The position numbers and the translations under genes were made by a program. From a virus (lineage: Duplodnaviria > Caudoviricetes), in the IMG/VR virus record IMGVR_UViG_3300033153_010811, positions 1 through 57,593 of that record: DNA of 57,593 nt, one strand, 5' to 3'. The notes beneath the pieces were generated by a model, which saw only the letters and a program-made list of their open reading frames with translations, ran no database searches and was not told the DNA's origin. Shown piece by piece: positions 13,387 to 57,593 of the stretch; the first letter of the stretch is position 1; every line of letters begins with the position of its first letter.

Positions 13387-13396
13387 TTATAAAATA

Positions 13397-13689: not shown

Positions 13690-13695
13690 CCTCAC

Positions 13696-13747
13696 CCCAA
13701 AAACCCCCTGAGAAGCCCTCAGAGGCTTTTCTCGGGGTTTTTTTGGG
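13696..13747. terminator. Bidirectional intrinsic terminator closing the TIGR locus
   Basis: AAAAACCCC-CTGAGAAG...CTTTTCTC-GGGGTTTTTTT hairpin between convergent units. Confidence 0.75.
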
Positions 13748-13799
13748 ATAGGTAAGGGGAGAGATAGGTAAGAGTAAAAGGGTCCTTAAAAAAGCCGCC

Positions 13800-14519: not shown

Positions 14520-14520
14520 T

Positions 14521-14712
14521 TTATATCTCCTTCCCCCATTTTTTTAACATTTCCTCTTGCGATAATTCGATGCATCGGTCACAGACACACAGATTAATCG
14601 TCGCCTCTCCATCTGTGAATGATACCCGGTATTTTACTGGGCGTTCCTTGCAAACATAGCAAGTGTCGTTGATGTTTATTTTTTTAATCGTCTTGTTGGT
14701 CATTTCTATCAT
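14521..14712 (-). CDS. Small Zn-finger protein
   Basis: CYVC...CDRC; GGAGG RBS before ATG 14712. Confidence 0.6.
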   Translation of the reverse strand: MIEMTNKTIKKININDTCYVCKERPVKYRVSFTDGEATINLCVCDRCIELSQEEMLKKWGKEI

Positions 14713-14725
14713 AACATCCTCCCTT

Positions 14726-14811
14726 GAAAATAAAAAAGGCGTACTATCCTGCAATATGGACAGTACGCCTGTGATTTGCCAAGATTATTCTTGGCGGTTC
14801 GATGGCGGTTA
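14726..14811 (-). repeat. Dispersed two-hairpin/terminator element, copy 2
   Basis: Homologous to 6435-6518. Confidence 0.75.
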
Positions 14812-15417
14812 GGTTAAGTTAGTCCAGAATTTCCCGCAATTAATGCAGGCCATACAATCTCGGGCCTGCTGCTGTGGTCGACTATTGGAAAAAACCAGTA
14901 CGCCATTTCCTTGGATAATGGCGTGCTGAAAACGTCTCCCGCACCCGCAATACATTGCGGGAGGTACCTCTTTCGGGGCTTGGAAGGATTTGTACTTCCT
15001 CACTCCCAAAAGAGCTGCGACCTCCTCAATAAGTTCAGGGTCGCGACACTTGTTGAGCGCATCTCGGACCTGCCGGATGCGCCTTTTCTGGATAGATTCT
15101 TTTTCAAAAGAGCCTATCCAATCCCAGACCCTTTCGATCAAAGCTTCAGCCTCTTCCAGACTGAGGCTTTGTATCGGGCTGAGGGCCTCGAGCACGATCC
15201 CGTGCCAGATATGGCTCTCCAAATATACTGAGTAATTTGGAAAATCTCTTTTCACGTCCTCACTTCCAAACGGAAGCTGGACGCGTCCCCAACCTTTGGG
15301 ATGACTGGCCTGCCTGATCAGAACAAGCCAGCCATCCTTTCTTGAGACAGAATTGCTGTCTCGTTTTGCCTCGACAGCAATCCCGCCAAAGTTACCGGTA
15401 TTGTTACTCCATTCCAT
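14809..15417 (-). CDS. Hypothetical protein (start MEWSNN)
   Basis: AGGAGG RBS before ATG 15417; Cys-rich C-terminus. Confidence 0.65.
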   Translation of the reverse strand: MEWSNNTGNFGGIAVEAKRDSNSVSRKDGWLVLIRQASHPKGWGRVQLPFGSEDVKRDFPNYSVYLESHIWHGIVLEALSPIQSLSLEEAEALIERVWDWIGSFEKESIQKRRIRQVRDALNKCRDPELIEEVAALLGVRKYKSFQAPKEVPPAMYCGCGRRFQHAIIQGNGVLVFSNSRPQQQARDCMACINCGKFWTNLT

Positions 15418-15429
15418 TCTTGCCTCCTT

Positions 15430-15488
15430 TTGCCCCGGCTTAGGGCTTTCGTTACCCGGTTCAGCGTTCCCCTTGACCGGGTTGAAAT
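15430..15488 (-). repeat. Start-associated leader repeat, diverged copy
   Basis: TGCCCCGGCTTAGGGCTTTCGTTACCCGGTTCAGCGTTCCCCTTGACCGGGTTGAAAT. Confidence 0.8.
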
Positions 15489-15493
15489 AATAA

Positions 15494-15652
15494 TTATGAA
15501 TAATTGGCAATTTCCTCCCCCGTCTCAACATCGACGAGGAGAATGTAGCCGGCATGGCCATACCGGGAATATCGGTAGGCCTCTGCCGCTCTTAAGGTGT
15601 CGCAATCCTTGTAGGATTGCCAGTCCTCACTAAAAACCCTAAACTTTCTCAT
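15494..15652 (-). CDS. Small hypothetical protein (MRKFRVF...)
   Basis: AGGAGG RBS before ATG 15652. Confidence 0.6.
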   Translation of the reverse strand: MRKFRVFSEDWQSYKDCDTLRAAEAYRYSRYGHAGYILLVDVETGEEIANYS

Positions 15653-15674
15653 TAGCCTTCCTCCTGCGAAGTCT

Positions 15675-15872
15675 TCACCGGTTAGATATATATTGTCCTT
15701 TTTCATAATCATATTTTCCAGCGGCGGTATCTTTTGCAACCTGGTCCGCCTCCTCAAAAGTATTGAAAGAACGGAAGCTACTAATTCGCCTAACAATATT
15801 GTGAGGTTTATTCCCGTGAGCCATACCGCAGGCCCACTTATTGCCGTAAGCAATTGCCATATAATATTTCAT
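15675..15872 (-). CDS. Small hypothetical protein (MKYYMAI...)
   Basis: GGAGG RBS directly after leader repeat. Confidence 0.6.
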   Translation of the reverse strand: MKYYMAIAYGNKWACGMAHGNKPHNIVRRISSFRSFNTFEEADQVAKDTAAGKYDYEKGQYISNR

Positions 15873-15882
15873 GGCTCCTCCC

Positions 15883-15941
15883 TTGCCCTGGCTTAAGGCT
15901 TTTGTTCCCGGCCAGCGTTCCCCTTGACCGGGTTGAAATGA
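15883..15941 (-). repeat. Start-associated leader repeat
   Basis: TTGCCCTGGCTTAAGGCTTTTGTTCCCGGCCAGCGTTCCCCTTGACCGG identical to 17040-17088. Confidence 0.85.
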
Positions 15942-15993
15942 TACAATGAGGTGCATGACGTTCAATCGGTTAAACCGACGAAGTCTTCACCTC

Positions 15994-16194
15994 TTATTCT
16001 TCCGCTGACCGGCACATTCCCGACACAGATACTGCCGGATAACCCATACCGGGGTACAGGGTACAGGTTATACAGCCGCACTCCGCGCAACGCTCTGCGC
16101 CACGGGAGTGCAGATATTCCCGATGTTCTCTGGTCGCTTGCGTTACGGCATCTTCCGACCGTGCAACCCCTATTTCATACATCGTCTCATTCAT
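15994..16194 (-). CDS. Small Cys-containing hypothetical protein
   Basis: GGAGG RBS; CAECGC. Confidence 0.55.
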   Translation of the reverse strand: MNETMYEIGVARSEDAVTQATREHREYLHSRGAERCAECGCITCTLYPGMGYPAVSVSGMCRSAEE

Positions 16195-16529
16195 TTTTTT
16201 ACCTCCTTTCCAAAAATAAAAATGCCGCAAATATTTTCAACCTCGATATCTATCGATTTCCCGACGGTATGCCAGGTTCGAGGTCGGTTGTATTTGCGGC
16301 AAATACAATTTTTTGTCCGGTACCAGCCCTGTGTTGATGCCGGACGCTCGATTATAATAATCCCGGTGACGCCCGTACGGGCACCCTCTGCGGCGGTTAT
16401 CCGGGGTACGCCCTCGGAAAAATACACACCAGTACCCTCAGCGCCTTGCGGCCCGGGATTTAATCTAATAACGTCTCCGGGTGAGACGAATTTAAGCTTG
16501 TCCCACCCGGAGACGTGGTACAATTTCAT
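16191..16529 (-). CDS. Hypothetical protein, possible ADP-ribosyltransferase-like fold
   Basis: MKLYHVS...GTGVYFS pattern; GAGG RBS. Confidence 0.5.
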   Translation of the reverse strand: MKLYHVSGWDKLKFVSPGDVIRLNPGPQGAEGTGVYFSEGVPRITAAEGARTGVTGIIIIERPASTQGWYRTKNCICRKYNRPRTWHTVGKSIDIEVENICGIFIFGKEVKK

Positions 16530-16557
16530 ACTACCTCTCCAATGACCGGGTTGAAAT

Positions 16558-16602
16558 GAAAATAAAAAAGGCGCACTATCCATATTGCAGGATAGTGCGC
16601 CT
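16558..16602 (-). terminator. Terminator hairpin, copy 3 of dispersed element
   Basis: Perfect 13-bp stem AGGCGCACTATCC/GGATAGTGCGCCT plus minus-strand U-run. Confidence 0.8.
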
Positions 16603-16606
16603 TGAA

Positions 16607-17023
16607 TTACCTCCCCAATGACCGGCAGCCGACAATTCTGCCGGTCTCATCCCGCACAACTTCTGCCGGGACGAGTAAATCATCCCGATCGGGCAGTGCG
16701 GACTTGACGAGCTGACTGACGATATAATACACGTCAGGCTCGTCAACCGTACCTGCTCCGCAATGGGGGCAGGTATCCGGGCTATGTATGTCCCCCGGAT
16801 CATTCTTTCCGCACTCCAGGCAGCGAGTATGAAAAGAAATATCCGGCAATCCGACGGGATCGCCGAATTTGGTGACGGAGGTTGGAATTCCGTCGATTTC
16901 GGCGGCCGGAACCGTTTCGACCGCCAACCGGATTTGCCCGACGCTTTCAAATCGGGCAAATTCGTTACCCTCCTCATCCAACATGTTTATCGGATGAGGG
17001 GTCATGTTAACTATTTTATGCAT
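16607..17023 (-). CDS. Conserved-type hypothetical protein with Zn-ribbon insert
   Basis: NMTPHPI...YIVSQLV...RDDLLVP...VRD..G.IVGC; CLEC...CPHC insert. Confidence 0.7.
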   Translation of the reverse strand: MHKIVNMTPHPINMLDEEGNEFARFESVGQIRLAVETVPAAEIDGIPTSVTKFGDPVGLPDISFHTRCLECGKNDPGDIHSPDTCPHCGAGTVDEPDVYYIVSQLVKSALPDRDDLLVPAEVVRDETGRIVGCRSLGR

Positions 17024-17039
17024 TTTTCCCCCCTTTTTT

Positions 17040-17088
17040 TTGCCCTGGCTTAAGGCTTTTGTTCCCGGCCAGCGTTCCCCTTGACCGG
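17040..17088 (-). repeat. Start-associated leader repeat
   Basis: 49-bp identity to 15883-15931. Confidence 0.85.
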
Positions 17089-17259
17089 TGCCTGAATCTC
17101 AACCTTTACGTAGGTGTCAGGATTATACCCAACACCTATCTCGTTGAGATAGGCCCTGATCTCGTCTTCCAAGTCACTATCATGGAAGACATTATCGATT
17201 TCAATATTCCTGGGCTCTTTCCCAGGATATTGAATGGTGTAAATGGTGTAACTGGTCAT
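17050..17259 (-). CDS. Hypothetical protein, first gene after the sigma54 promoter
   Basis: AGGAGG RBS. Confidence 0.65.
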   Translation of the reverse strand: MTSYTIYTIQYPGKEPRNIEIDNVFHDSDLEDEIRAYLNEIGVGYNPDTYVKVEIQAPVKGNAGREQKP

Positions 17260-17305
17260 TTTTCCCCTCCTTTTGTGTTGTTGTTTTCATTTGCCTATTT
17301 GATAC

Positions 17306-17322
17306 AGCAAATATCGTGCCAA
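17306..17322 (-). promoter_or_regulatory. sigma54 (-24/-12) promoter, leftward
   Basis: Minus strand TTGGCACGATATTTGCT matches TGGCAC-N5-TTGC. Confidence 0.75.
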
Positions 17323-17346
17323 ACGTAACATATTGAATTTGTTATA

Positions 17347-17362
17347 TGGCATGATATTTGCT
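17347..17362 (+). promoter_or_regulatory. Possible second sigma54 site, rightward
   Basis: TGGCATGATATTTGCT. Confidence 0.55.
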
Positions 17363-17373
17363 TGCATACTTTT

Positions 17374-17410
17374 TGACAAATTTTGTCAGGCGATTGACAT
17401 TAATTGTCAA
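17374..17410. promoter_or_regulatory. Tandem TGACA-N5-TGTCA palindromes (putative activator sites)
   Basis: TGACAAATTTTGTCA and TTGACATTAATTGTCAA, 21 bp apart. Confidence 0.6.
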
Positions 17411-17822
17411 TTACAAGCCATATTTTTGAATCCGGTTTTTCTCTCCTTATTCCAGTCATACCGTTTGCATTTAGGGCAGGCTTTAGGTTGTTTAGTTCGT
17501 GAAATCCAAATATGGCCACATTGTTTACATTGACATTTCATGGCATTACCTCCTTTTTATTAGGGTTATATTAATATAATCATAATAAATAATATTGTCA
17601 AGAAAATAATAATCACAGAAAAGAACCCTTGACAGCCATAATTGTGCTATGATATGCGATAAGCACAAGATATGGTATCGAGGTGAATTATCCTGATACG
17701 GGTTCCGAAGATAATCCTGGCAGCCCCGGTTGGAAAAAGCACCAGGAATTAAGGATAAACAGCCGGCCGGATCACGTCGCGGGTGATACTGGATACTCAA
17801 TCGAGCAATAACAACAAAGAAA

Positions 17823-18269
17823 ATGAAACGTAAAATAGAATTCACGCAAAAACAGATTAATCAAGTGGAAGCATTGGCTTCTGTCTTAACCATCGAACAG
17901 ATATCAGAATATTTTGGTATTTCCTACGTTACCTTTGGGCGTTTGAGAAAAGATAATGAAGCAATTGATATTGCCTACAAAAAAGGCAAGGCAAGGGCTA
18001 TTCGCACTGTGGCTGAAGGATTACTGGATAAGGCTAAAGCAGGAAATTTGTCAGCCATTATTTTCTATTTGAAAACGCAGGCAGGATGGAGGGAAACAAA
18101 CCGCACTGAATTTACAGGACCAGATGGAAAACCTATCGAGGCAAATCTGAGTAGCAAGAAAAAAATCACGATGGACCTGTCTGATAGGACTACAGAGGAA
18201 TTGCTGGCCATCCATGCAGGATTGAAAATAGTAAAAGAGGCTATAGGTGATACAATCACAGAAAAATAA
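17823..18269 (+). CDS. terS: Terminase small subunit
   Basis: N-terminal HTH; AIIFYLKTQAGWRE..E.TGPDGKPI; directly upstream of TerL. Confidence 0.8.
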   Translation: MKRKIEFTQKQINQVEALASVLTIEQISEYFGISYVTFGRLRKDNEAIDIAYKKGKARAIRTVAEGLLDKAKAGNLSAIIFYLKTQAGWRETNRTEFTGPDGKPIEANLSSKKKITMDLSDRTTEELLAIHAGLKIVKEAIGDTITEK

Positions 18270-49675: not shown

Positions 49676-50198
49676 TTTACATGATTATTATAAAGTACGG
49701 CCATTAATAAAAACGGGCGATCATCTTGGGTGGAAATCCAATGGTATTATAGGTCGGTTAATCCGGGTATTCGCTCCCGGGCCGATTAATCACAGCGAGA
49801 TTGTTATCAAGATACCGTTTGAGGGCCTCGATGACCGGAGATTTAACATAGGGGCATTGGGAAGTGGTGTGTCTTTGCATTTATTATCCAGACAACTCGA
49901 AAATTATAATGGTAAGGTTTACTGGTATCCGCTCAAAGACGAGTTCGATGAATTAAGACCTGCCATTGCAGCATTTATTTTGCAAAAAATAGATATCAAA
50001 TATGATTTTTACAGTCTTTTTAAAAACGCTTTCGGTAGGGTTTCAACCGAAGCAAGTAAATTATTTTGCTCGGAGGTGTGTAATTGGGCATGGGCCAGTG
50101 CAGGGATAGACACAGGATTTCCATTAAATGGAAAGGCTCCGACTCCGGCTGATATTGATCGGTTTACGATCTTCAAAGAGAAAGTACAAATTTTGTAA
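49668..50198 (+). CDS. Permuted papain-like (YiiX/YebB-like) protein
   Basis: IKTGD, NHSEI, YDF, LFCSE..., PTPAD. Confidence 0.75.
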   Translation: MNDLHDYYKVRPLIKTGDHLGWKSNGIIGRLIRVFAPGPINHSEIVIKIPFEGLDDRRFNIGALGSGVSLHLLSRQLENYNGKVYWYPLKDEFDELRPAIAAFILQKIDIKYDFYSLFKNAFGRVSTEASKLFCSEVCNWAWASAGIDTGFPLNGKAPTPADIDRFTIFKEKVQIL

Positions 50199-50218
50199 CT
50201 GCTTTTGAGGAGAACCCA

Positions 50219-50512
50219 ATGAAACAAATATCATCTTCAAACCTGATATTAAGGTGTTATGCCCACGGAATATATGGTGGGAGATGGTATGGGGTGTGTT
50301 TAGATTTAAACCTGGCCGCTGAAGCTGATTCTTTTAATGAGTTAAAACAAAAACTACATGAAATGACTTCAAGTTATTTTTCATGTGTTTTAGATACAAA
50401 TGACAAAGATTCTATTCCAGGTCTTCTGTCGAAAAAAGCACCTCTAATGGATTGGATTAAATATTATTTAATTTGCCTGCGGATTTCTATTAAGAAACTA
50501 TTTAAATTTTGA
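50219..50512 (+). CDS. HicB-like fold protein
   Basis: WYGVCLDLNLAAEADSFNELKQKL. Confidence 0.55.
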   Translation: MKQISSSNLILRCYAHGIYGGRWYGVCLDLNLAAEADSFNELKQKLHEMTSSYFSCVLDTNDKDSIPGLLSKKAPLMDWIKYYLICLRISIKKLFKF

Positions 50513-50555
50513 ATACAGTCCCTTTTGGGGAAAATGCCTGAAAGTAAGAAATCCC

Positions 50556-50585
50556 TGGGGGTCTAAAATAATTTTAGATCCCCCA
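50556..50585. terminator. Hairpin between convergent late and accessory operons
   Basis: TGGGGGTCTAAAAT-A-ATTTTAGATCCCCCA. Confidence 0.6.
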
Positions 50586-50598
50586 ATCCTCTCTTTGT

Positions 50599-50991
50599 CT
50601 ACTTCATAACGCCTTCTATTATTTGTTTGGCTTTGCTTAAAATGCCCAAAGCCAAGTCCTTATCAATTTTATATCTTAATTTTTCGTCAGGCACTTCAAT
50701 TATTTCTAACAGCGAAGATGCCACATGGATCTTAGCATACAAAGCTTTAAGATCATTTTTTGATATGAGCTTATACCCTTTAATTTCTTTCCTAAACTTA
50801 ATCAAACCAGGGCTAATCTTCCTTACAAATCTTAGCGCCTTGCTGGGTTGGCTTTGGTTCATTTTTAACACCGCAGGAAAATAGCTGGTGTCAAGTCGGT
50901 ATTCGTAGTATGCATTATCAACCTGAAAGCCTATGCGGCCTTCTTTAGAAGTGTATATAAGATCTATCTTTTCAGTCATTTTGGTCCCCAC
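50599..50991 (-). CDS. Hypothetical protein
   Basis: ORF track. Confidence 0.6.
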   Translation of the reverse strand: MGTKMTEKIDLIYTSKEGRIGFQVDNAYYEYRLDTSYFPAVLKMNQSQPSKALRFVRKISPGLIKFRKEIKGYKLISKNDLKALYAKIHVASSLLEIIEVPDEKLRYKIDKDLALGILSKAKQIIEGVMK

Positions 50992-51259
50992 TGGATTTGT
51001 TTTTAAATTCAGCCAATTCTTTTTTTAGCTGACTCAGTAATTCCTCATATGTTTTCAATTCAGGTGCGTCTTTACAATAACTCCAAGTTATCACCCATTC
51101 ATCTGGAAAACATTGAACACAAATATTACCCTTCTTCTCGTCAAAAGTAAACCACACTCTGTGGCCTAAAATATCACTTAGAGAACAACCTGCCTCTTGT
51201 ACAGCTAATGCTGCAAGAGCAACTTGCGGCCTTATATCTTCTCTATATTTTATTCTCAT
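50972..51259 (-). CDS. Hypothetical protein
   Basis: GGAGG RBS. Confidence 0.6.
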   Translation of the reverse strand: MRIKYREDIRPQVALAALAVQEAGCSLSDILGHRVWFTFDEKKGNICVQCFPDEWVITWSYCKDAPELKTYEELLSQLKKELAEFKNKSSGDQND

Positions 51260-51447
51260 GTAATTTCCTCCGCTTTCAGTTTTTTGAGTAGATTTAGATT
51301 GCTATCACGTTTAGTGTTAATTTCATCCAAGTAGTTTTTGAGTCTCTTTCTGGCATCCATACCAGCCTTTATGGTTTTTTCCACTTGTCGTTGTTCCTTC
51401 TTTGATAGCAGCTCAGCTTCATTTTCTGCATAATCTTCTTTTGTCAT
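51256..51447 (-). CDS. Hypothetical protein
   Basis: AGGAG RBS. Confidence 0.55.
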   Translation of the reverse strand: MTKEDYAENEAELLSKKEQRQVEKTIKAGMDARKRLKNYLDEINTKRDSNLNLLKKLKAEEIT

Positions 51448-51615
51448 AGTCTCCTTCCCTATTTAAAGTATCGAATAACCCAACAAAAAACGGTTAGCTC
51501 ATATCCAAGAACTTCCTCACGTTGGCTTCTCATTCTTCGTAGCATTAATATCCATTTAAACTTTGGCGACCATCTATAAAATTGAATTCCTCTCATTTTG
51601 ATCCTCCTTTTTGCT

Positions 51616-51850
51616 TTACAGCATTCCACTCTCAGCCATTATTCTAATTACCTCTTCTTCTGGAAGAACCCAACAGGGATATATTACAGCTTTCCCGTGA
51701 AGAGAATAACAACGTGTTCGGTACTCCTTAAATGTGAGGGTGCTTAGACTTCTTTTGTACTCATCTTGTACCCAGCTGTCGTATATTAGTAACAGCTCTG
51801 GAAACAAGAAATAATACATCCACATTTATTTCCTTAGTTATACTATTCAT
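51616..51850 (-). pseudogene. Paralog 1 of the MWxYYFLFPE family, internally deleted/frameshifted
   Basis: MNSITKEI start joins MWMYYFLFPE out of frame. Confidence 0.6.
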
Positions 51851-51862
51851 TAGCTTTCCTCC

Positions 51863-52135
51863 CTATATTATCCCACTCTCAGCCATTATCCTCAACACCT
51901 CCTCTTCTGGAAGAACCCAGCAAGGAAATATTATAGCCTCTCCGCTACAAGCGACCAGATTAAATACTTTATATTCCTTCGCCGCCCACTCATCGTATAT
52001 GATGAGCAGCTCAGGAAATAGAAAGTAGTATACCCACATCGGAGAGAACGGTAATGATCTGCATACCGAGCTATGCGGATCATTCTTTTTGAATTCCTCA
52101 TAAGTTTGTTTTATTTCTTTAGTTATGCTGTTCAT
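51863..52135 (-). CDS. Paralog 2 of the MWxYYFLFPE family
   Basis: Shared motifs with 51616 and 52561 ORFs. Confidence 0.7.
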   Translation of the reverse strand: MNSITKEIKQTYEEFKKNDPHSSVCRSLPFSPMWVYYFLFPELLIIYDEWAAKEYKVFNLVACSGEAIIFPCWVLPEEEVLRIMAESGII

Positions 52136-52560
52136 TAGCTTTCCTCCCTATATTTCATCTCTTATGAATTCAAGCATTCTTTTGTGAGCTTTTAACCAAC
52201 ACGGAAGCCATATTTTATCTTCTTCCACGTAATTGTGCGGATTTCCTTTTTGTTCCATCTCATTGATACAATCCTGTGCCCACTCGATTTCCTCCTCACA
52301 TTTTTTTCTAATCTCATCTATCACTTTATTATCTCACTTGGTTATAAGGATCTATTAGATGAATTCTGTATCTTCCTACAATTTGGACAATACAATCGTC
52401 TAATAGTCTCGTCCTCTAATTTATATTGTTCCATTAATGTAGGCCATCCGCATCTTTCACAACATTTCCACCCATCAACAAAATAAGGCTCAGATCATAC
52501 TTTAGGCGGAAACATCCGATTAATAAAACGTTTTATCATTTTAATCTCCCCTCTGTCTCC

Positions 52561-52878
52561 CTATAATATCCTACTTTCCTTCATAATCCTAAGAACTTCC
52601 TCCTTTGAAAGAACCTTACATGGATATAGTAGGGCTTCACCTCTTGCCGTGCTGAATATAAATTTTCTATATCCCTCAATAAAATAAATGCTCGGATACT
52701 TTTCATATTCCGCTAATGTATAATCATCATACACTTGCAACACCTCTGGGAATAAGAAGTAATACATCCACATTTGATCTATTATTGAGAACGGCGCTGA
52801 AGCATATACTGGTCTTGGAGGGCTGGTCTTTTTAAATTGATCGAAGACTTTTTTTATTTCCTTAGTTATGTTGTGCAC
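52561..52878 (-). CDS. Paralog 3 of the MWxYYFLFPE family
   Basis: NITKEIK...MWMYYFLFPE...EEVLRIM.ES. Confidence 0.7.
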   Translation of the reverse strand: MHNITKEIKKVFDQFKKTSPPRPVYASAPFSIIDQMWMYYFLFPEVLQVYDDYTLAEYEKYPSIYFIEGYRKFIFSTARGEALLYPCKVLSKEEVLRIMKESRIL

Positions 52879-53408
52879 TGCTCCCCCTCGATTTTAATCC
52901 GGTGCTCACCTGTGTAATGGTGATTAAGGTTTTCTATGCCTATTTCTTTTTGATAATGATTTGCCTCAAAATCAAGCATATCGCATTTGTGACAATTCAT
53001 TGGCTGATTTGCATATGCCGCTGCGTCCCTGCATTCCTTGTATCTTCTACAATGCAATGCCGCAAACGCTCGCTTTTCGCGAGCGTTTTTCCTTTCGGAT
53101 TTTTTGTTGTGTCGAGTGCTCCATCCTTGAGAATGGGCATACTTGGATATCCTTGCGTCAGAAATACCCAGTTCTAAGGCCAGGGCTTTAACGCGTCCAT
53201 GACCGACATCATGATTATAGACCTCGAAAATTCTATTGTGTATGTCTGGTGTAATCCTTCGGACTTTGGTGCGGCCTTTTCGACTGATGGGATGGCCGCT
53301 TTTTTTCTGACATGCTCGGCTACAGAAACGGGGAGGTCCTTGTTCTTCCGATCTCCATGCTTGACCTGCATGGCCGCATGTTTCACAGATGAAACTATAT
53401 ACGGGCAT
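52866..53408 (-). CDS. Zn-finger/HTH hypothetical protein
   Basis: MPVYSFICETCG, FCSRAC, LALELGISDARI. Confidence 0.6.
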   Translation of the reverse strand: MPVYSFICETCGHAGQAWRSEEQGPPRFCSRACQKKSGHPISRKGRTKVRRITPDIHNRIFEVYNHDVGHGRVKALALELGISDARISKYAHSQGWSTRHNKKSERKNAREKRAFAALHCRRYKECRDAAAYANQPMNCHKCDMLDFEANHYQKEIGIENLNHHYTGEHRIKIEGEQCTT

Positions 53409-53586
53409 TGTTTTCCTTACAATGGTTTGTTACACCCCTCACCTGGATTTATGTTCATTATAGCTAAGGTGTGATTTGCATGGCCTCTGCCCCATGCTCG
53501 TACCCTGTGAGTGGAGTTAATCCTCACGCCATCAAATTAAGCTCACAGACTCCATTTGTACTACTCAAAACACCAGTTTCTTAGGG

Positions 53587-53698
53587 GTATAACGAAATTA
53601 TTCATAATATTCACATTCTGGTTTATGAAATACTGTGAGTCCTTGAATAGGACAATTGCACCGACCTTCGCCGTCCGAGTGCATGATGCTGGTTAGAT
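53587..53698 (-). repeat. attC-like site (right arm degenerate)
   Basis: ATCTAAC-CAGCATCATGCACTCGGAC...GTTATAC. Confidence 0.55.
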
Positions 53699-53849
53699 AA
53701 TGGCGAAGCGCAGAGATAATAAGTGGTATTTCAATCTCTGGCTCTTTTATAGCAATAGATGCCCACTGATACCCATTATGGGTTACAGATAGATAAATAT
53801 CTTTTCCGTTTCTTTCGGTTTTAACCTCAACTTTATATTTTTTATTCAT
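53598..53849 (-). CDS. Cassette ORF, hypothetical
   Basis: Reads into its attC. Confidence 0.6.
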   Translation of the reverse strand: MNKKYKVEVKTERNGKDIYLSVTHNGYQWASIAIKEPEIEIPLIISALRHYLTSIMHSDGEGRCNCPIQGLTVFHKPECEYYE

Positions 53850-53854
53850 AAGTC

Positions 53855-53987
53855 ACCTAACGATTAGCTCACTGATAGCGAACCTATACCTGCTCTCCAC
53901 ATAAGCCACAAATACGAACTGATTTAATGTAACCCTTTGGATGAACGCACCGACCTTCGCCGTCCGAGTGCATGGCGCTGGTTAGGG
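53855..53987 (-). repeat. attC-like site
   Basis: CCCTAAC-CAGCGCCATGCACTCGGAC...GTGAGCTAATC-GTTAGGT. Confidence 0.7.
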
Positions 53988-54144
53988 TGGCGTCTTCGAG
54001 TTCTACAGATACGACATTATAAGGGCCAACTATCTCAAAACCAGGCGACCCTCCATTCATTTCATCTGCCAGCTCTTGCATTTTGCGGCCATCTATTGAA
54101 GCTCTTTCAATATTGTCTTCAAACATTAAAATATGTACTTGCAT
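53884..54144 (-). CDS. Cassette ORF, hypothetical
   Basis: GGAGG RBS in the core site; reads into attC. Confidence 0.6.
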   Translation of the reverse strand: MQVHILMFEDNIERASIDGRKMQELADEMNGGSPGFEIVGPYNVVSVELEDATLTSAMHSDGEGRCVHPKGYIKSVRICGLCGEQV

Positions 54145-54151
54145 CTAAGCC

Positions 54152-54209
54152 TCCTAACGATTAGCTGAGCCGCTCGGCTTTTCGAGTCGGCTCAAGCGGC
54201 TTGCTAGAT
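54152..54209 (-). repeat. attC-like site (58 bp)
   Basis: ATCTAGC-AAGCCGCTTGAGCCGACTCGAAAAGCCGAGCGGCTCAGCTAATC-GTTAGGA. Confidence 0.8.
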
Positions 54210-54481
54210 TGTTTGTTAATTAATGACTCTAAGTCTGCCGCACAAGCATATAACCACGCTTGTTCGGAGGTGTTGTGTGATTTATCTGCTTGGTCTTTCC
54301 ATTTATTAGCCAATAACCGATATTTGTTTTTCATATTACCTCCAGTAGTTGGTTGTATATCTTCTTCCATATCCAAAAGCCAATTAGCGCATTCTTCACA
54401 TAAAGATTCATCTGTGCCACAATTTTCACTATCTACAAAAAACTCCTCTCCACACTCTTTACAAATACCTCTGATTTGCAT
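54161..54481 (-). CDS. Cassette ORF, probable fusion of two ORFs
   Basis: Internal GGAGG-ATG at 54334. Confidence 0.55.
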   Translation of the reverse strand: MQIRGICKECGEEFFVDSENCGTDESLCEECANWLLDMEEDIQPTTGGNMKNKYRLLANKWKDQADKSHNTSEQAWLYACAADLESLINKQSSKPLEPTRKAERLS

Positions 54482-54500
54482 CTTGCTACCTCCTCAAGAA

Positions 54501-54559
54501 ATATAACGATTTAGCTGAACGGCGCAGTTTTTGGCGTCCGCTCCAGCGCCTGGTTATAT
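54501..54559 (-). repeat. attC-like site (59 bp)
   Basis: ATATAAC-CAGGCGCTGGAGCGGAC...CCGTTCAGCTAAATC-GTTATAT. Confidence 0.85.
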
Positions 54560-54765
54560 TTTTTCGTACAATTTACAATATGATCGATCAATTTAACCAT
54601 GTTATCATACAACTTACCATGTGATTCCATCATGTGGGGCCCCAGGTAAAATTCTCCGAAAATAATAGACATGTCTCCAGATTTAATTCCCAGAGATATG
54701 ACTTCGGCTGGCCCACAACTACCCATATATTCAGGCTTTATTGCTTTTATTTTTTCTATAATCAT
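54511..54765 (-). CDS. Cassette ORF, hypothetical
   Basis: GGAGG RBS. Confidence 0.6.
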   Translation of the reverse strand: MIIEKIKAIKPEYMGSCGPAEVISLGIKSGDMSIIFGEFYLGPHMMESHGKLYDNMVKLIDHIVNCTKKYNQALERTPKTAPFS

Positions 54766-54780
54766 TCAATTTCCTCCAAA

Positions 54781-54822
54781 ATATAACAGTGTTAATAAAC
54801 AGGAATCTGCGGCTTGTTATAA
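54781..54822 (-). repeat. Short/deleted attC-like site (42 bp)
   Basis: TTATAAC...GTTATAT. Confidence 0.55.
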
Positions 54823-54954
54823 AACCGAGATATGTTGTTTAACAACTTTAATATGTATTTGATTTTTTATATCGTCATACTCGATTTCTTTTATCTCTCG
54901 TTCTTCTGACAAAATTTTTATAATTTCTCTTATTTCCTTTTCTGGTATAATCAT
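54817..54954 (-). CDS. Cassette ORF, 45 aa
   Basis: AGGAG RBS; stop TAA within the AAC box. Confidence 0.55.
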   Translation of the reverse strand: MIIPEKEIREIIKILSEEREIKEIEYDDIKNQIHIKVVKQHISVL

Positions 54955-54976
54955 AATATTTACTCCTTTAGTAGTT

Positions 54977-55034
54977 TTATAACGATAAGTTAAGTCGCCC
55001 GGTTTTTCGAGTCGGCTCAAGCGGCTTGTTATGC
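54977..55034 (-). repeat. attC-like site (58 bp)
   Basis: GCATAAC-AAGCCGCTTGAGCCGACTCGAAAAACCGGGCGACTTAACTTATC-GTTATAA. Confidence 0.8.
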
Positions 55035-55699
55035 CATAGTCGATTGAGATTTTTCTTAATTTTGACTTTGGTAATTTTTTTAAGCTCAAATATCAGTTCT
55101 TGCACTTTTTTTAGTTCTGGCTCACACAATTTGACCTTATGATTTGTATTAGCTCCGATATTTACCCATTCGGGTTCTATATCCGCAATCCATTTAACCA
55201 TTGATTTTATATCAAAGTCCATGATGGGTTCTATTGTGACCATTAGAGCAAGAGGAAAACCACAGCCTCGAATGACAGCCATTTGCTCAAAACGATCTAT
55301 TGTTTTTGGCGCATGCCCCATTTCTGGATAATAACGGTTGGTTTCAATCGTTGTACCAATAACACTTTTACTTGGCAGATATTCAGCATAAGCATTGAAT
55401 CGGGCTGGATTTTTCGATTGAAAAAGATATTTATTTTTAAAACGGTCACATACATTTAGTGTGCGATCTATCCATGCTTTAGGTATTTTATCGGCCCACA
55501 TATCACAGGATGACCCAACGAATATGTAATTGCTCTCGCCTAGATCGGTTTTAAGTTCTAATTCATCGAGTCGAACCGGTTTTTGTTCTCCCCACCGTTT
55601 CATATAGCAATACGTGCAATCGTGAGGACATTTACCTTTTACGGTATTCCATGTGTGAGTCAAAAATGAGTACATATTTCCTTTTACTATATTAAGCAC
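54977..55699 (-). CDS. DUF5131 (Gp37/Gp68-like) radical-SAM-type protein
   Basis: TWNTVKGKCPHDCTYCY CxxxCxxC; IFVGSSCDMW; TIEPI; WVNIGA. Confidence 0.8.
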   Translation of the reverse strand: MLNIVKGNMYSFLTHTWNTVKGKCPHDCTYCYMKRWGEQKPVRLDELELKTDLGESNYIFVGSSCDMWADKIPKAWIDRTLNVCDRFKNKYLFQSKNPARFNAYAEYLPSKSVIGTTIETNRYYPEMGHAPKTIDRFEQMAVIRGCGFPLALMVTIEPIMDFDIKSMVKWIADIEPEWVNIGANTNHKVKLCEPELKKVQELIFELKKITKVKIKKNLNRLWHNKPLEPTRKTGRLNLSL

Positions 55700-55823
55700 T
55701 TGTTACGGTTTAGTCAGCGGTGCGATTGGCGCATTTATCACATACCCATCGTTTAACGGTAACACAATTTTGCCCACATAAAGCACACGGCATCATAGCA
55801 TCCGCTTCAACGACTGGTTGGGA
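55700..55823 (-). repeat. attC-like site (long, core GTT mutated to GTA)
   Basis: TCCCAAC-CAGTCGTTGAAGCGGAT...ACCGCTGACTAAACC-GTAACAA. Confidence 0.65.
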
Positions 55824-55964
55824 GGCACTTGGGTAGTAGCAACCGATTGAGTCCCATAATACTTTCAAGATGTGCTTTCTTTCTAAGCTGTTCTTGGTAT
55901 TATCAACTAACCATCTTGCATCATTATTTATTAATTCTCTATATTTCTCATATTTAACTTTCAT
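55710..55964 (-). CDS. Cassette ORF, hypothetical
   Basis: GGAGG RBS; reads through attC. Confidence 0.6.
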   Translation of the reverse strand: MKVKYEKYRELINNDARWLVDNTKNSLERKHILKVLWDSIGCYYPSASQPVVEADAMMPCALCGQNCVTVKRWVCDKCANRTAD

Positions 55965-55974
55965 TCTCTTAGCC

Positions 55975-56074
55975 TCCCAACATCCAAATAACCTACAAGA
56001 AAAGCCACTATAAAAATAACGCTCATTTTAAAACGGCTTGGCTTTTCTTGTCAGAGTTAATTTTATTGTTATCT
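55975..56074 (-). repeat. attC-like site (100 bp)
   Basis: AGATAAC-AATAAAATTAACTCTGAC-AAGAAAAGCCA...TGGCTTTTCTT-GTAGGTTATTTGGAT-GTTGGGA. Confidence 0.8.
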
Positions 56075-56343
56075 GCTTTTTGAAAATCTTTTTTCATGGT
56101 GGTGAATAAAAGTATAAATTTGTCTAAATCTTCTTCGCGCATCAACCATGTATCCCAATGTCCATATTTACACTTATATCCAAATAAGTATTTTATAGCT
56201 ATCCAAAGCCTTTTGTACCATTTCCGCCAATCATTTAGAAATATACTTGCATAAATTTCTCGATCTTCTCTGTCATATACAAATTTCAGGATATGTTCAT
56301 CGGAATAACAAGCACATTCAAAAAAATAAGTTCCATCAAGCAT
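56023..56343 (-). CDS. Cassette ORF, hypothetical
   Basis: AGGAG RBS. Confidence 0.65.
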   Translation of the reverse strand: MLDGTYFFECACYSDEHILKFVYDREDREIYASIFLNDWRKWYKRLWIAIKYLFGYKCKYGHWDTWLMREEDLDKFILLFTTMKKDFQKADNNKINSDKKSQAVLK

Positions 56344-56360
56344 TGTTAATTTCTCCTTGC

Positions 56361-56495
56361 AGATAACGTTCTAATAACCTGCGTGTAGGGTTTGCACACC
56401 CCTTAAAAGAGCACTCCCGCCCGTCATCCCCTGGCAATTATCGACTCTTACCGACAAGCCGACCCTACACGTCAGAGTTAATTTGTTTGTTAGCG
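56361..56495 (-). repeat. attC-like site (135 bp)
   Basis: CGCTAAC-AAACAAATTAACTCTGAC-GTGTAGGGT...ACCCTACAC-GCAGGTTATTAGAAC-GTTATCT. Confidence 0.8.
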
Positions 56496-56579
56496 GGCCA
56501 TGCCGTCCCCGCCTCTTTCGAGGTTCGCTGTACCACCCGACCGTATTTATTCGACATGGAGTATTTTCCACTTCCCACC

Positions 56580-56637
56580 CGCTAACGATTAGCTGAGCCG
56601 CCCGGTTTTTCGAGTCGGCTCAAGCGGCTGGTTAGAT
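56580..56637 (-). repeat. attC-like site (58 bp)
   Basis: ATCTAAC-CAGCCGCTTGAGCCGAC...CGGCTCAGCTAATC-GTTAGCG. Confidence 0.85.
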
Positions 56638-56832
56638 ACTTAAATTGTCATTATACCATATGCCGTATTCATAGCGTCTTTCTGCTTCCCTCTCTTCCCG
56701 GCACATACAATCATCACATATCGCCCACTTAACGCCGCCCTCCGAATACACTCCATCGGTATCATTCCCACATTTAGGACATTTGTGCACTTTAAGTTCT
56801 TCCTTACCTAAATAAGTAATTGTCTTTTTCAT
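56632..56832 (-). CDS. Cassette ORF, Zn-finger
   Basis: CPKC...CDDC; stop TAA within the AAC box. Confidence 0.65.
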   Translation of the reverse strand: MKKTITYLGKEELKVHKCPKCGNDTDGVYSEGGVKWAICDDCMCREEREAERRYEYGIWYNDNLSI

Positions 56833-56849
56833 GATTTATCCTCCTTTAG

Positions 56850-56907
56850 GGCTAACGATTAGCTGAGCCGCTCGGCTTTTCGAGTCGGCTCAAGCGGCTG
56901 GTTATCT
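56850..56907 (-). repeat. attC-like site (58 bp)
   Basis: AGATAAC-CAGCCGCTTGAGCCGAC...CGGCTCAGCTAATC-GTTAGCC. Confidence 0.85.
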
Positions 56908-57147
56908 AATTTCCATTACCCATCCCTTTGATTTCACTTGTGCAATTATGCCTGTTAATTGTGGAAATTTTTTATTTGAATATAATCTGCCCTCGGAATT
57001 AACAGGTGCTGTTGCAAATACACAAGCACGATCTTTCTTGCGAATTAATCGGTACGCCCCTTTTGAGAGTTCCCACTCTACTATATCTCCTACCTCTGCA
57101 TGAGGGCAATTTTCGTGTACTGGGTATGTATTGCGTATTATTTTCAT
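56902..57147 (-). CDS. Cassette ORF, hypothetical
   Basis: GAGGAGG RBS; stop TAA within the AAC box. Confidence 0.65.
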   Translation of the reverse strand: MKIIRNTYPVHENCPHAEVGDIVEWELSKGAYRLIRKKDRACVFATAPVNSEGRLYSNKKFPQLTGIIAQVKSKGWVMEIR

Positions 57148-57164
57148 ATATAGCCTCCTCTTAC

Positions 57165-57218
57165 AGATAACGATTAAGTCAGCCGCCGTTATCGATCGGC
57201 TGGACTGGCTGGTTATAT
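57165..57218 (-). repeat. attC-like site (54 bp)
   Basis: ATATAAC-CAGCCAGTCCAGCCGAT...CGGCTGACTTAATC-GTTATCT. Confidence 0.8.
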
Positions 57219-57593
57219 GTTAGCACGGACGGCCTAAACACCACAACGGCAGAGGGAAATGGAGCGCTATTTTTACTGCCGCCAAATTTTAATCGCCCTG
57301 GAACAAACCATATATCTCCCTTGCTTGCATATCTCTGCCACCACTTTGTGTCTGTCCGAGCAGGGACAAGACAAACTACAAGATGTCCTTGTAATGCTGT
57401 CTCATAAGCTTTTTTCATCCACTTGCCTATCTCTCGGCCATAGGGCGGATTTATCCAACATCGACTATCCCATTCTTTTTCAAATAATCTTAATTGACCA
57501 TCAATTATCAATTTGTCTGTTTCGCAAAAATAATCCGTATAAGCCCAACCACAAGCTTTAAAAACGTTTTCAATAATGGCTTGCGCCACAGGC
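57179..57593 (-). CDS. Phage N6-adenine methyltransferase domain (5' end beyond right edge)
   Basis: CWINPPYGREIGKW, LVPARTDTKWW, GRLKF, APFPS. Confidence 0.85.
   Translation of the reverse strand, partial: PVAQAIIENVFKACGWAYTDYFCETDKLIIDGQLRLFEKEWDSRCWINPPYGREIGKWMKKAYETALQGHLVVCLVPARTDTKWWQRYASKGDIWFVPGRLKFGGSKNSAPFPSAVVVFRPSVLTYNQPVQPIDNGG

Follow-up and report, generated by a model that had tools for sequence, protein, structure and literature searches.

Positions 53587-57593 of a phage contig probably hold an integron-type gene-cassette array without a visible integrase (a CALIN, or cluster of attC sites lacking an integron-integrase), which lies in a phage early operon, would have been built by an integrase acting in trans and has since partly decayed. 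The entry of its cassettes as circles through recombination at G/TT, proposed in a first-pass annotation, is well supported by a class 1 attC model, covariation in the site structure, complementarity between the two ends of each cassette and the recurrence of the same cassettes elsewhere with breakpoints at the core. Phage CALINs have been known since 2023 (Qi, Rajabal, Ghaly, Tetu and Gillings, 2023, Front Microbiol, PMC9892861; below, Qi et al., 2023), and this array is a large, clean further case.

Phage setting and cassette cargo

The window analysed is a whole IMG/VR virus record, linear, 57,593 nt long and of 79% CheckV completeness (∼21% of the genome is missing). The phage is siphovirus-like and comes from an environmental metagenome. 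Its record encodes terminase, portal, capsid, tape measure and tail fibre; the left arm carries the recombination genes Erf, exonuclease and NinB, with methyltransferases also on the left end. The array (53587-57218, minus strand) consists of small co-oriented ORFs with attC-type sites between them. It sits in a tightly packed leftward early/accessory operon, adjoins a zinc-ribbon protein gene and has a GC content similar to that of the phage arms (0.37-0.40). On its upstream side the contig end cuts into the array, and the record contains no phage gene beyond that point. Promoter-like sites are not enriched on the gene strand (19 found, 21 expected). Each unit appears to be a promoterless cassette in which a ribosome-binding site is followed by a single small ORF with its attC, and expression may come about through read-through of the phage operon. 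The cassettes are as follows, where L007 is a metagenome contig and X1 to X4 are runs represented by short assembled contigs that may be phage or bacterial:

57179-57592, minus: Dam-type N6-adenine DNA methyltransferase ORF (PF05869, E 1.9e-10; phrog_111, E 3.8e-29)
56902-57147, minus: cassette ORF, 81 aa, no Pfam or PHROG match; ∼98% identical cassette with another neighbour in X1 and X4
56632-56832, minus: cassette ORF, 66 aa, zinc ribbon, weakly Lar-like (PF14354, 17.5 bits, under the 28.6-bit cut-off)
56496-56579, minus: ORF-less cassette body, start GTTAGCGGG, end CCCGCTAAC; own-end run 9 nt
56023-56343, minus: cassette ORF, 106 aa (phrog_12660, E 8.9e-9)
55710-55964, minus: cassette ORF, 84 aa, reads through its own decayed attC; ∼97% identical in L007 behind another attC
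55690-55706, minus: deletion joint fusing the preceding cassette to the DUF5131 cassette, from comparison with X2
54977-55675, minus: DUF5131/radical-SAM-like ORF (PF07505, E 3e-8; phrog_2045, E 8.3e-12), 3′ end reads through W6
54820-54957, minus: cassette ORF, 45 aa, from the ORF list; no Pfam match
54511-54765, minus: cassette ORF, 84 aa, no family found (Pfam, PHROG)
54161-54481, minus: cassette ORF, 106 aa, zinc-ribbon-like N-terminus, reads through W9; no family found (Pfam, PHROG)
53884-54144, minus: cassette ORF, 86 aa, runs into W10; no family found (Pfam, PHROG)
53598-53849, minus: cassette ORF, 83 aa, runs into W11; no family found (Pfam, PHROG)

The methyltransferase ORF is the first visible cassette; the end of the contig cuts off its N-terminus, and its 3′ end enters site W1. 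Together with the phrog_12660 and DUF5131 ORFs it makes up the three of ten searched cassette ORFs with a PHROG match at E < 1e-8, and the DUF5131 and adenine methylase genes named earlier as phage-type cargo are thereby borne out. Homologues of the DUF5131 protein (46-54% identity) occur in five other viral contigs, none of which has an attC match at E < 1. The 66-aa zinc-ribbon protein aligns with a Lar protein of L007 (BLASTP E 0.019). Pieces of the ORF-less cassette are present in X1, X3 and X4; it has no Rfam match, and its RNA fold reaches z -2.25. What can be recognised of the cargo is phage-type (Dam methyltransferase, the DUF5131 protein and, in a sister array, Lar-type anti-restriction), as might be expected of a reserve of accessory and counter-defence genes.

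attC sites and their structure

The sites are imperfect AAC...GTT palindromes of 42-135 nt, each followed directly by a Shine-Dalgarno sequence and an ATG. They are ordered as an R″ core, a 5-nt unpaired spacer, an L″ arm with two unpaired bases, a variable loop, an L′ arm, a spacer and an R′ core GTT. The first-pass annotation had counted 12 attC-like sites, and the inventory agrees with 11 sites and one half-site: six short canonical, two long well-folded, one weak 42-nt site, two long decayed and the decayed half-site. Its statement that every small ORF ends in a palindrome has two exceptions: the DUF5131 gene is not separated by a complete site from the 84-aa ORF (55710-55964), and four of the sites (W6, W10, W11 and 6a) fold poorly, as given below. 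Two covariance models were used. R3 was built solely from seven attC sites in the class 1 integron of the published E. coli P1 isolate MH445380, and R2 solely from phage and metagenome sites, its strong matches in the array being its own training rows.

57165-57218, minus: attC W1, short canonical; R3 E 5.6e-5; bottom-strand fold z -2.7 with R box, unpaired spacer and bulged L box
56850-56907, minus: attC W2, short canonical; R3 E 2.5e-6; fold z -3.1; R″ contains the 81-aa ORF's stop codon
56580-56637, minus: attC W3, short canonical; R3 E 5.6e-6; canonical fold, z only -1.0
56361-56495, minus: attC W4, long, 135 nt; R3 full-length at exact ends, E only 0.47; R-box-closed fold z -1.9
55975-56077, minus: attC W5, long, ∼100 nt; R′ GTTGGGA at 55981-55975; fold z -4.5; weak R3 match at 55975-56074, E 2.1
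55795-55826, minus: half-site 6a, R″ (GCCTCCCAAC), spacer and L″ arm only, 3′ arm lost; 10-nt own-end match; fold z +0.3; no R3 match
54977-55034, minus: attC W6, short, L′ mismatches; R3 E 1.9e-3; fold z -0.1
54781-54822, minus: attC W7, 42 nt, weak or shortened; R2 E 0.16; no R3 match; 10-nt own-end matches on both sides
54501-54559, minus: attC W8, short canonical, compensatory L-box changes (covariation); R3 E 1.2e-6; canonical fold z -1.5
54152-54209, minus: attC W9, short, R″ core mutated (AGC for AAC); R3 E 1e-6; own-end run only 1
53855-53987, minus: attC W10, long hybrid/decayed, 5′ arm of the long family and 3′ arm short-family-like; aligned with L001c and L001f; fold z +0.5; no R3 match
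53587-53698, minus: attC W11, long, decayed, last visible cassette boundary, without cognate 3′ arm; fold z -1.2; no R3 match

In the 57.6-kb record, R3 recovers all six short sites with their boundaries exact (E 1e-6 to 1.9e-3), a result that is not fully independent of R2, since the R3 rows were picked and aligned using R2. Beyond these it finds W4 and W5 weakly and nothing else below E 3.6. Reciprocally, R2 finds seven sites in 11 kb of the MH445380 integron, six of them directly 3′ of annotated cassette genes (aadA, cmlA, dfr), and returns a single match at E ≤ 1 in 821,028 bases from 58 other phage loci and three bacterial loci. The two unpaired bases occupy the same model positions in the phage sites and in aadA-type class 1 attC sites.

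An alignment of 12 short sites (six from the array, three from L001, two from L007, one from the related contig G002) pairs in 92.5% of cells of the R-box/L-box structure, with double, compensatory changes in 9 of 17 pairs. None of 500 shuffles reaches any of five measures, and slid registers pair at only 16-40%. Single-site folding is less uniform. Bottom-strand folds give z -1.9 to -4.5 for W1, W2, W4 and W5; W6, W10, W11 and 6a fold as single-stranded DNA no better than shuffles, and energies are unremarkable across W3, W6, W7, W8, W10, W11 and 6a (z -1.5 to +0.5).

The start of each cassette complements its own 3′ inverse core. Summed exact runs reach 72 against 43.0 ± 4.8 for permuted pairings, a value attained in 0 of 200,000 permutations, which agrees with the earlier claim that the match is to the cassette's own end and not to its neighbour's. 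Compared with the in-situ partner in nine comparable cassettes, the own-end run is longer in six, equal in three and shorter in none. The six core/inverse-core pairs quoted in the first-pass annotation were all found as written; the pair GTTGGGAGGC/GCCTCCCAAC is real, with its inverse core falling within ORF 55710-55964. In G001, an unrelated phage contig with an array of the same attC family, all six cassettes have own-end runs of 7-10 nt, summing to 51 against 30.5 ± 4.5 when permuted.

About half of the sites in the array are mutated, hybrid or truncated, and the upstream ones are best preserved. Both arms of W4 are common to W5, with homologous 3′ arms, and the 39-nt 5′ arm of W11 is 95% identical to that of W10 (family D5). 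The first attC of L007 reads as a longer relative of W7. W2 and W9 have 48 identical bases in common, so the cassette order could partly be an assembly product.

Recurrence of the cassettes in other contigs

The 84-aa cassette at 55710-55964 recurs in L007, where homology begins at the GTT of R′ behind a different attC and stops at 55981, the R′ core of W5. Its pieces in X1, X2 and X4, three of the four runs and from three studies, also stop at 55981 and continue into sequence unlike the array. The 81-aa cassette adjoins a W4-type site in X1. An intact attC precedes the DUF5131 gene in X2, where the piece 55148-55701 connects, across 14 letters that differ, with the 3′ end of a W9/W2-type site. 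Some pieces from the runs break inside an attC and not at the core. That the same cassettes have other neighbours, with breakpoints at G/TT, indicates cassette-precise mobility, as judged from these contig comparisons.

Sites of this attC family are co-oriented and lie downstream of phage recombination genes in three contigs: the present record, G001 (exonuclease, helicases, RusA) and the relative G002 (UvsX, RuvC, SbcCD-like). The G001 array reaches the contig end; its start is visible, adjoins phage genes and lacks an integrase. G002 has one lone site, 728 nt from a contig end, and reading of the sequence upstream of the lone-site cassette ORF finds no 5′ core. Both this lone attC, which follows a small ORF, and the non-attC site ahead of the first G001 cassette resemble the SALIN/attG insertions described by Loot et al. 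(bioRxiv 10.1101/2022.09.11.507474) and may reflect insertion by an integrase away from att sites. Searching genome contigs for exact 20-mers returned three unrelated loci, none matched by the model. No host, cognate integrase or bacterial integron of this attC family was found.

Origin of the array

The 57.6-kb record contains no tyrosine recombinase, as stated earlier: TIGR02249 has no match, and PF00589 none even at E ≤ 1. A complete phage-borne integron, with intI, attI and Pc just past the contig end at 57593, would let the phage shuffle its own cassettes. Integrons carry their integrase directly upstream of the first cassette, and the contig is cut at exactly this position in a record that is only 79% complete; the well-preserved upstream sites are also what an active attI nearby would lead one to expect. 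Such elements are published for temperate phages (Qi et al., 2023, Table 1). Against them, neither profile matches in the record, G001 or four further related records, and if the genome is read as a circle, what comes next at the contig's left end is phage recombination genes and methyltransferases, not an integrase, so that this arrangement is unlikely.

It is improbable, too, that the array is bacterial DNA, whether a chromosomal integron or CALIN flanking a prophage or one misassembled onto the contig via a shared repeat, the phage itself being without cassettes. IMG/VR records can carry host flanks, the arrays here and in G001 run to contig ends with no phage gene upstream in this record, the attC family is as homogeneous as those of sedentary chromosomal integrons, and exact repeats of up to 48 nt lie between sites. 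Vibrio prophages have acquired pieces of host integrons (Qi et al., 2023). The record, however, shows no integrase or att-like boundary, the array continues into the packed operon at the zinc-ribbon gene with phage-like GC and phage-family genes among its cargo, and in three different phage contigs the sites occupy the same niche, co-oriented with recombination genes. All five related records, one of them with direct terminal repeats, lack a PF00589 match, which points to a non-integrating lineage.

Ordinary intergenic hairpins (terminators, REP-like repeats or regulatory stem-loops) that resemble attC by chance are strongly disfavoured: the AAC/GTT cores are short and shuffled sequence folds as well as several of the sites, but the class 1 model, the aadA-like unpaired bases, the own-end permutations and the G/TT breakpoints of recurring cassettes all speak against them, and none of the sites is called as an intrinsic terminator on the gene strand.

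An integrase-less array filled in trans best accounts for these features. The circles would have gone in singly, through cleavage of R′ between G and TT by an integron integrase. Since the recovered 79% of the genome encodes no integrase, the enzyme most likely belongs to an integron of the host and acts in trans while the phage infects it. The first-pass annotation had a host integrase gaining and shuffling genes; the cassette array stands, while the host as source does not follow from a contig that ends upstream with ∼21% of the genome missing, and the shuffling may have preceded capture by the phage. Present activity is made doubtful by the share of mutated, hybrid or truncated sites. Decay would have spared the upstream sites and altered those downstream, and one deletion would have fused two cassettes, which makes the array partly a fossil.

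A survey of 10,705 NCBI phage genomes reports 17 CALINs and 3 complete integrons, with methyltransferase cassettes among their cargo, and five of six tested phage attC sites recombined with attI1 (Qi et al., 2023). Those CALINs likewise have co-oriented ORF-attC units, no integrase nearby and DNA methyltransferase cargo, and a bacterial integrase in trans was proposed for them. They have at least two sites among the examples described, three in phage TJE1, compared with 11 and a half-site here. The present phage is uncultured and its array known from sequence alone; it differs further in an attC family that is homogeneous and recurs in an unrelated phage contig, and in cassettes that have other neighbours across samples. 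Sedentary chromosomal integrons of the Vibrio type share the many small cassettes without annotated function, the single conserved attC family per array, ORFs that end in or read into attC and own-end core complementarity. Here, in contrast, intI, attI and Pc are not in view, the setting is a phage operon, there are only ∼11 cassettes and about half of the sites are decayed. Class 1 mobile integron cassettes (aadA, cmlA, dfr) have the same attC geometry, including the two unpaired-base positions and an AGCCGAC stretch in L″, and models from either set find the other; their cargo is antibiotic resistance, unlike that of the present array, and their carriers are transposons or plasmids, where here the carrier is an environmental phage.

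The sequences themselves show the site architecture, the attC family membership, the cassette boundaries, the recurrence of cassettes beside other neighbours and the lack of an integrase in cis within the record; we infer the source of the integrase and the expression, function and present activity of the array. The phage looks able to swap accessory genes one cassette at a time.

Layout of the array and identity of its sites

Small leftward ORFs alternate from window position 57218 down to 53587 with imperfect palindromes that, read on the gene strand, start with ..AAC and end with GTT.., and a strong Shine-Dalgarno sequence and an ATG follow within a few bases of each palindrome. The succession of palindrome-separated leftward ORFs described in the first-pass annotation is confirmed: over 3.6 kb there are 11 sites and one half-site, which share the minus-strand orientation and lie 3′ of ORFs. 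Most cassettes hold one ORF; one is ORF-less, and one pair is fused through a deletion.

Sites of the cassette array
Window 53587-57218, minus strand: array of attC-type sites, numbered from W1 (upstream-most) to W11 (last)
W1, W2, W3, W6, W8 and W9, minus strand: short sites of 54-59 nt with a nearly identical plan
W4 (135 nt) and W5 (~100 nt), minus strand: long sites, both arms common to the two
W7, minus strand: weak site of 42 nt
W10 and W11, minus strand: sites with a 39-nt 5′ arm common to both (95% identical) and to two long sites of another phage contig, without a matching 3′ arm
6a, minus strand: half-site, 5′ half only, within ORF 55710-55964

The 5′ arm of the short sites consists of a 7-nt R″ box with a terminal AAC, a spacer of 5 nt, and stems of 3 and 6 bp, the first followed by one unpaired base and the second by one unpaired A. 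After a short stem-loop come the mirror arm, which has no unpaired bases, a spacer of 5-6 nt and GTTA. In the short-site alignment, the only departure from the TAAC and GTTA cores is one A-to-G change in W9, and the unpaired columns comprise two single ones (16 and 23 of the site alignment A3) and the 5-6-nt unpaired spacers. With at least two co-oriented attC sites close together 3′ of ORFs, and no integron integrase in a record whose upstream side is cut at the contig end, the array is best read as a cluster of attC sites lacking an integrase (CALIN).

The alignment used to assess covariation combines the six short sites of the window with three sites of L001 (a stretch of the unrelated phage contig G001), two of the metagenome contig L007 and one of the related phage contig G002, 12 short sites in all. 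In this alignment 92.5% of cells are paired and double changes occur in 9 of 17 pairs; none of 500 shuffles reaches any of five covariation measures, and slid registers give 16-40% pairing.

Escherichia coli phage P1 isolate MH445380 is reported to carry class 1 integrons (PMC9892861). The covariance model R2, built from phage and metagenome sites only and having its own training rows as its strongest window matches, yields seven matches at E ≤ 1 in this genome (126.5 kb), five of them at E ≤ 2e-4, all on one strand at 79278-83109; the intI1 matches (84.9-87.6 kb) lie a few kb away. With filters off, R2 finds seven sites across 11 kb of MH445380, six directly 3′ of annotated cassette genes (aadA-type, cmlA-type and dfr) and the seventh in an unannotated gap of the array. 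They align along the full model with an AGCCGAC stretch in common, and the aadA and cmlA attC sites have two unpaired bases at the same model positions as the phage sites. In 821,028 bases from 58 other phage loci and 3 bacterial loci, R2 gives a single match at E ≤ 1.

Recognition also works in the other direction. A model made from the seven class 1 sites of MH445380 alone (R3), its rows having been picked and aligned with R2, recovers all six short sites of the window at their exact ends with filters off (E 1e-6 to 1.9e-3). The claim that the palindromes are attC-like is thereby upheld for the short sites, is borderline for W4 (E 0.47) and W5 (E 2.1), which match weakly at ends derived beforehand, and falls short for W7, W10, W11 and 6a, which R3 does not find; the whole record holds nothing further below E 3.6. 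A weak match of another attC model, R1, at window 892-948 (E 1.4) was dropped, being absent with R2 and R3.

Folded as bottom-strand DNA, the sites range in z from -4.5 to +0.5, with z ≤ -1.9 for W1, W2, W4, W5 and W9 and -1.5 to +0.5 for W3, W6, W7, W8, W10, W11 and 6a; W6, W10, W11 and 6a fold no better than shuffled sequence. The canonical fold of R box, spacer and bulged L box appears in W1, W3, W4, W5 and W8, and W2 and W9 show the L box alone. These fold energies are only moderately convincing. Intrinsic terminators or generic hairpins are rejected, as no site is called on the minus strand and two partial plus-strand calls overlap W2 and W8; an Rfam search over 50000-57593 returned nothing beyond a chance U6 match (E 0.54). 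Covariation, cross-recognition both ways with class 1 sites, and specificity agree that the sites are attC.

Cassette boundaries, cargo and occurrence elsewhere

The integron crossover lies between G and TT of the R′ box. The first bases of a cassette therefore derive from its own attC, and are expected to be complementary to its own R″ box rather than to that of the preceding site. Exact complementary runs in the 10 window cassettes measure 7, 5, 9, 9, 10, 10, 10, 1, 6 and 5 nt, a sum of 72 reached by none of 200,000 permuted pairings (43.0 ± 4.8). Compared with the in-situ partner, the own run is longer in six of nine cases, equal in three and never shorter, and all six pairs of core and inverse core quoted in the first-pass annotation are present in the window. 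The G001 array behaves likewise, with runs of 7-10 nt in 6/6 cassettes and a sum of 51 against 30.5 ± 4.5, which 73 of 50,000 shuffles reach, about the share expected for the true order.

Cassettes of the array recur in other contexts. L007 (1,585 nt) consists solely of cassettes of the window's attC family, and its last cassette carries the 84-aa gene of the window at ~97% identity, preceded up to the GTT of R′ by sequence unrelated to the window, that is, by a different attC. Further copies come from four public metagenome runs (X1-X4) of sediment and hydrothermal vents, which belong to four studies, do not include the source sample and each hold at most 10% of the sampled words of window 52000-57593, so that window parts without cover carry no meaning. 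In three of the four runs, pieces of the 84-aa cassette stop at 55981 and then diverge from the window; the loose end past this point in X2 is an attC of the L007 type. In X2, an intact short attC precedes the DUF5131 gene (55148-55701), its 3′ end being separated from the gene by 14 other letters, and the gene is therefore a separate cassette elsewhere. In the window, a deletion has taken away the upstream site of the DUF5131 cassette and fused this cassette to the 84-aa one, which explains the half-site 6a. The 81-aa cassette is joined in X1 to a site of the W4 type, a different cassette order. The contigs of these runs are short and may come from phages or from bacteria, and some pieces break within attC rather than at the core. 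Across samples, individual cassettes thus seem to move between contexts.

Exact scans are sparser in their returns. A 20-mer scan found one other viral contig and three bacterial loci, the latter not matched by the model, a 27-mer scan one metagenome contig, and a scan with one 25-mer of the long type G001 only; blastn of the array found nothing among 50,697 cultured phage records. Origin by recombination at G|TT, as the first-pass annotation had proposed for an integron-type array, is well supported by R3, covariation, own-end complementarity and breakpoints at GTT, the recombination itself being deduced from the homology breakpoints at the GTT of R′ together with own-end complementarity. The first-pass interpretation is upheld in part, a host source of the integrase being probable and present activity no more than possible. 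Because W2 and W9 share 48 identical bases, the cassette order in the contig may be partly an assembly product.

Phage-family matches at E < 1e-8 were obtained for 3 of 10 cassette ORFs searched, namely a Dam methyltransferase (phrog_111), phrog_12660 and DUF5131 (phrog_2045), and one L007 cassette encodes a Lar restriction-alleviation protein above the Pfam cut-off. Homologues of DUF5131 occur in five other viral contigs, none of which has an attC match at E < 1. Promoter-like sites are not enriched in the cassettes (19 against 21 expected) and terminator-like sites are lacking on the gene strand, which suggests read-through from a phage promoter.

Several features of the cassette bodies are recorded here in their own right. 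The ORF-less body at 56496-56579 (~85 nt) has 0-3 differences per 100 nt in X1, X3 and X4, an RNA fold z of -2.25 and no Rfam match; candidate readings are a small RNA, a promoter cassette and a remnant. A C-terminal tail, ..KPLEPTRK..RL.., is shared by window ORFs 54161-54481 and 54977-55675 and by L007 1029-1298, such tails being alike in unrelated proteins because translation of ORFs lacking an in-frame stop continues through the conserved 5′ arm of attC. A second tail, ..LTSxMHSDGEG.., comes from the long attC family and ends window ORFs 53598-53849 and 53884-54144 and, by eye, two L001 ORFs.

Phage setting of the array and source of the integrase

The window covers an entire IMG/VR record, which is linear and has a CheckV completeness of 79%. 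It belongs to a tailed phage whose structural module, with genes for the terminase large subunit, portal, capsid, tape measure and central tail fibre, is oriented rightward and extends from 17.8 to ~50 kb. An early arm at 1-5.4 kb runs leftward and encodes an Erf-like annealing protein, an exonuclease, NinB and HNH endonucleases. The array occupies the upstream half of a second leftward block, from 57.6 down to 50.6 kb. The closest cultured terminase, from a Croceibacter phage, is only 39% identical, strong Shine-Dalgarno use argues against a Bacteroidota host, and a query of a protein atlas with the capsid returned viral clusters only. The 180-aa gene adjoining the array has no relative among the viral contigs searched.

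Other parts of the record deserve mention. DNA methyltransferase-like genes number at least four: phrog_67 (7991-8866), phrog_56 (13800-14519), Dam (57179-57592) and a minus-strand gene at window 1-100 whose N-terminus is truncated by the left contig end, and which we take by eye to be a C5-cytosine DNA methyltransferase (FxGxG-type motif I). This set looks like a heavy investment in restriction escape; a PAPS-reductase-like gene is also present at 9162-9896. The block at 12000-18000 is richer in GC (0.44-0.46 against 0.36-0.40 on both sides), includes a transposase-like ORF at 12529-13386 (phrog_4285, E 5.7e-10) and perhaps represents the insertion of a mobile element. Next to the array on its downstream side, leftward ORFs 51863-52135 and 52561-52878 look like paralogues, alike in their N- and C-terminal stretches, and have no attC sites around them. 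Non-cassette genes of 52000-53410 also occur in X1-X4 as short pieces at roughly 87-100% identity (mostly 88-94%), so that relatives of the phage, or of these genes, exist in several sediment and vent samples.

The lack of a tyrosine recombinase was borne out: neither TIGR02249 nor PF00589 (even at E ≤ 1) matched in the 57,593-nt record, and all control genomes matched. An integrase borne by the phage itself could lie upstream of the array, on the side cut off by the contig end, and the set of intI, attI and Pc would be expected beyond base 57593. This set is absent from all sequence at hand, and since the related records also lack intI, such a gene is unlikely.

It is quite unlikely that the array is a host flank or an assembly join rather than phage DNA, even though the contig ends inside the array and no sequence is seen upstream of the Dam cassette. 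G001 is a myovirus-like contig of 26.5 kb that encodes baseplate proteins, helicases and RusA. It has one gene only in common with the window, and its end is formed by an array of at least six sites belonging to the window's attC family; the visible start of that array directly follows co-oriented phage genes without an integrase. G002, a 58-kb relative with a syntenic structural module (75-90% amino-acid identity), bears one lone site at the end of an operon of UvsX/RuvC/SbcCD-like genes, where it follows a small zinc-ribbon ORF. PF00589 is found in none of five related records, one of which has direct terminal repeats, and the lineage is therefore without sign of integrating. The phage-family cassette ORFs, the Lar cassette of L007, the attC-less DUF5131 homologues of other viral contigs and a GC content like that of the phage arms also speak against a host flank or join. 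Residence of the array in phage DNA is the favoured reading.

Some observations concern the start of the G001 array. At L001 6685-6773, right after a 464-aa ORF, a palindromic stretch of ~80 nt ends in GTT where the first G001 cassette starts, a cassette with an own-end match of 9 nt. The stretch has no match with R2 or R3 and may have acted as an attI-like site, or as a secondary target for insertion, in phage DNA. An AT-rich leader precedes two ORFs (113 and 59 aa) in one G001 cassette (L001 7650-8442); in chromosomal integrons, cassettes that hold several genes and a promoter often encode toxin-antitoxin pairs. Pfam returned nothing for eight G001 cassette ORFs or for the 464-aa ORF.

For an array resident in the phage, an integron integrase made in the infected cell would insert circular cassettes at a site in the phage early operon and later at existing attC sites. 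This integrase would most likely be that of the host and less likely the phage's own, encoded in the fifth of the genome that the record lacks. Loot et al. (10.1101/2022.09.11.507474) report insertion by the integrase outside att sites, and the non-attC palindrome before the first G001 cassette and the lone G002 site fit the insertions described there. In the distal half of the window array, mismatches affect L′ of W6 and a mutation the core of W9; W10 and W11 are of hybrid type, and 6a is a truncated site. Such distal decay would be in keeping with cassettes that are older the farther they lie from the insertion point, and with the absence of steady selection on the sites.

Phage cassette arrays as possible accessory stores

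Integrons are best known for assembling antibiotic-resistance genes. A screen of 10,705 NCBI phage genomes reported 3 complete integrons, 1 lone integrase and 17 CALINs, noted methyltransferase cassettes in phage arrays, and found that five of six attC sites of virulent phages recombine with attI1 (Qi et al., 2023, PMC9892861). Phage cassette arrays are therefore already known, and the examples described in that text have two to three sites, against 11 here. What is new is the size and regularity of the array, one attC family in unrelated phages, the apparent movement of cassettes across samples, and visible decay and fusion. A literature search for work on phage cassette arrays later than Qi et al. 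(2023) found none.

Chromosomal and mobile integrons are described in preprints as holding anti-phage defence cassettes (10.1101/2024.07.02.601686, 10.1101/2024.07.02.601719). A tentative and rather doubtful possibility is that sediment and vent phages keep arrays as exchangeable accessory or counter-defence stores (methyltransferases, Lar-type anti-restriction), with unrelated phages that share a host trading cassettes via the host integrase during infection, and phage genes such as DUF5131 being caught as cassettes. If true, such arrays would mirror, on the viral side, the role of chromosomal integrons as banks of anti-phage defence, and DUF5131, a plain gene in other phages caught here as a cassette, would offer a handle on cassette birth. 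Five other phage contigs have this gene without attC, and the contrast with the attC-bearing copy here is a natural comparison, of a rare kind, bearing on the unsolved origin of cassettes. W1, W2, W3 and W8, together with the defined cassettes, are material for direct recombination and anti-restriction tests. A long canonical array in a phage would show integron machinery serving the other side of the conflict between phages and bacteria, and would also show that cassettes can travel between bacteria in phages.
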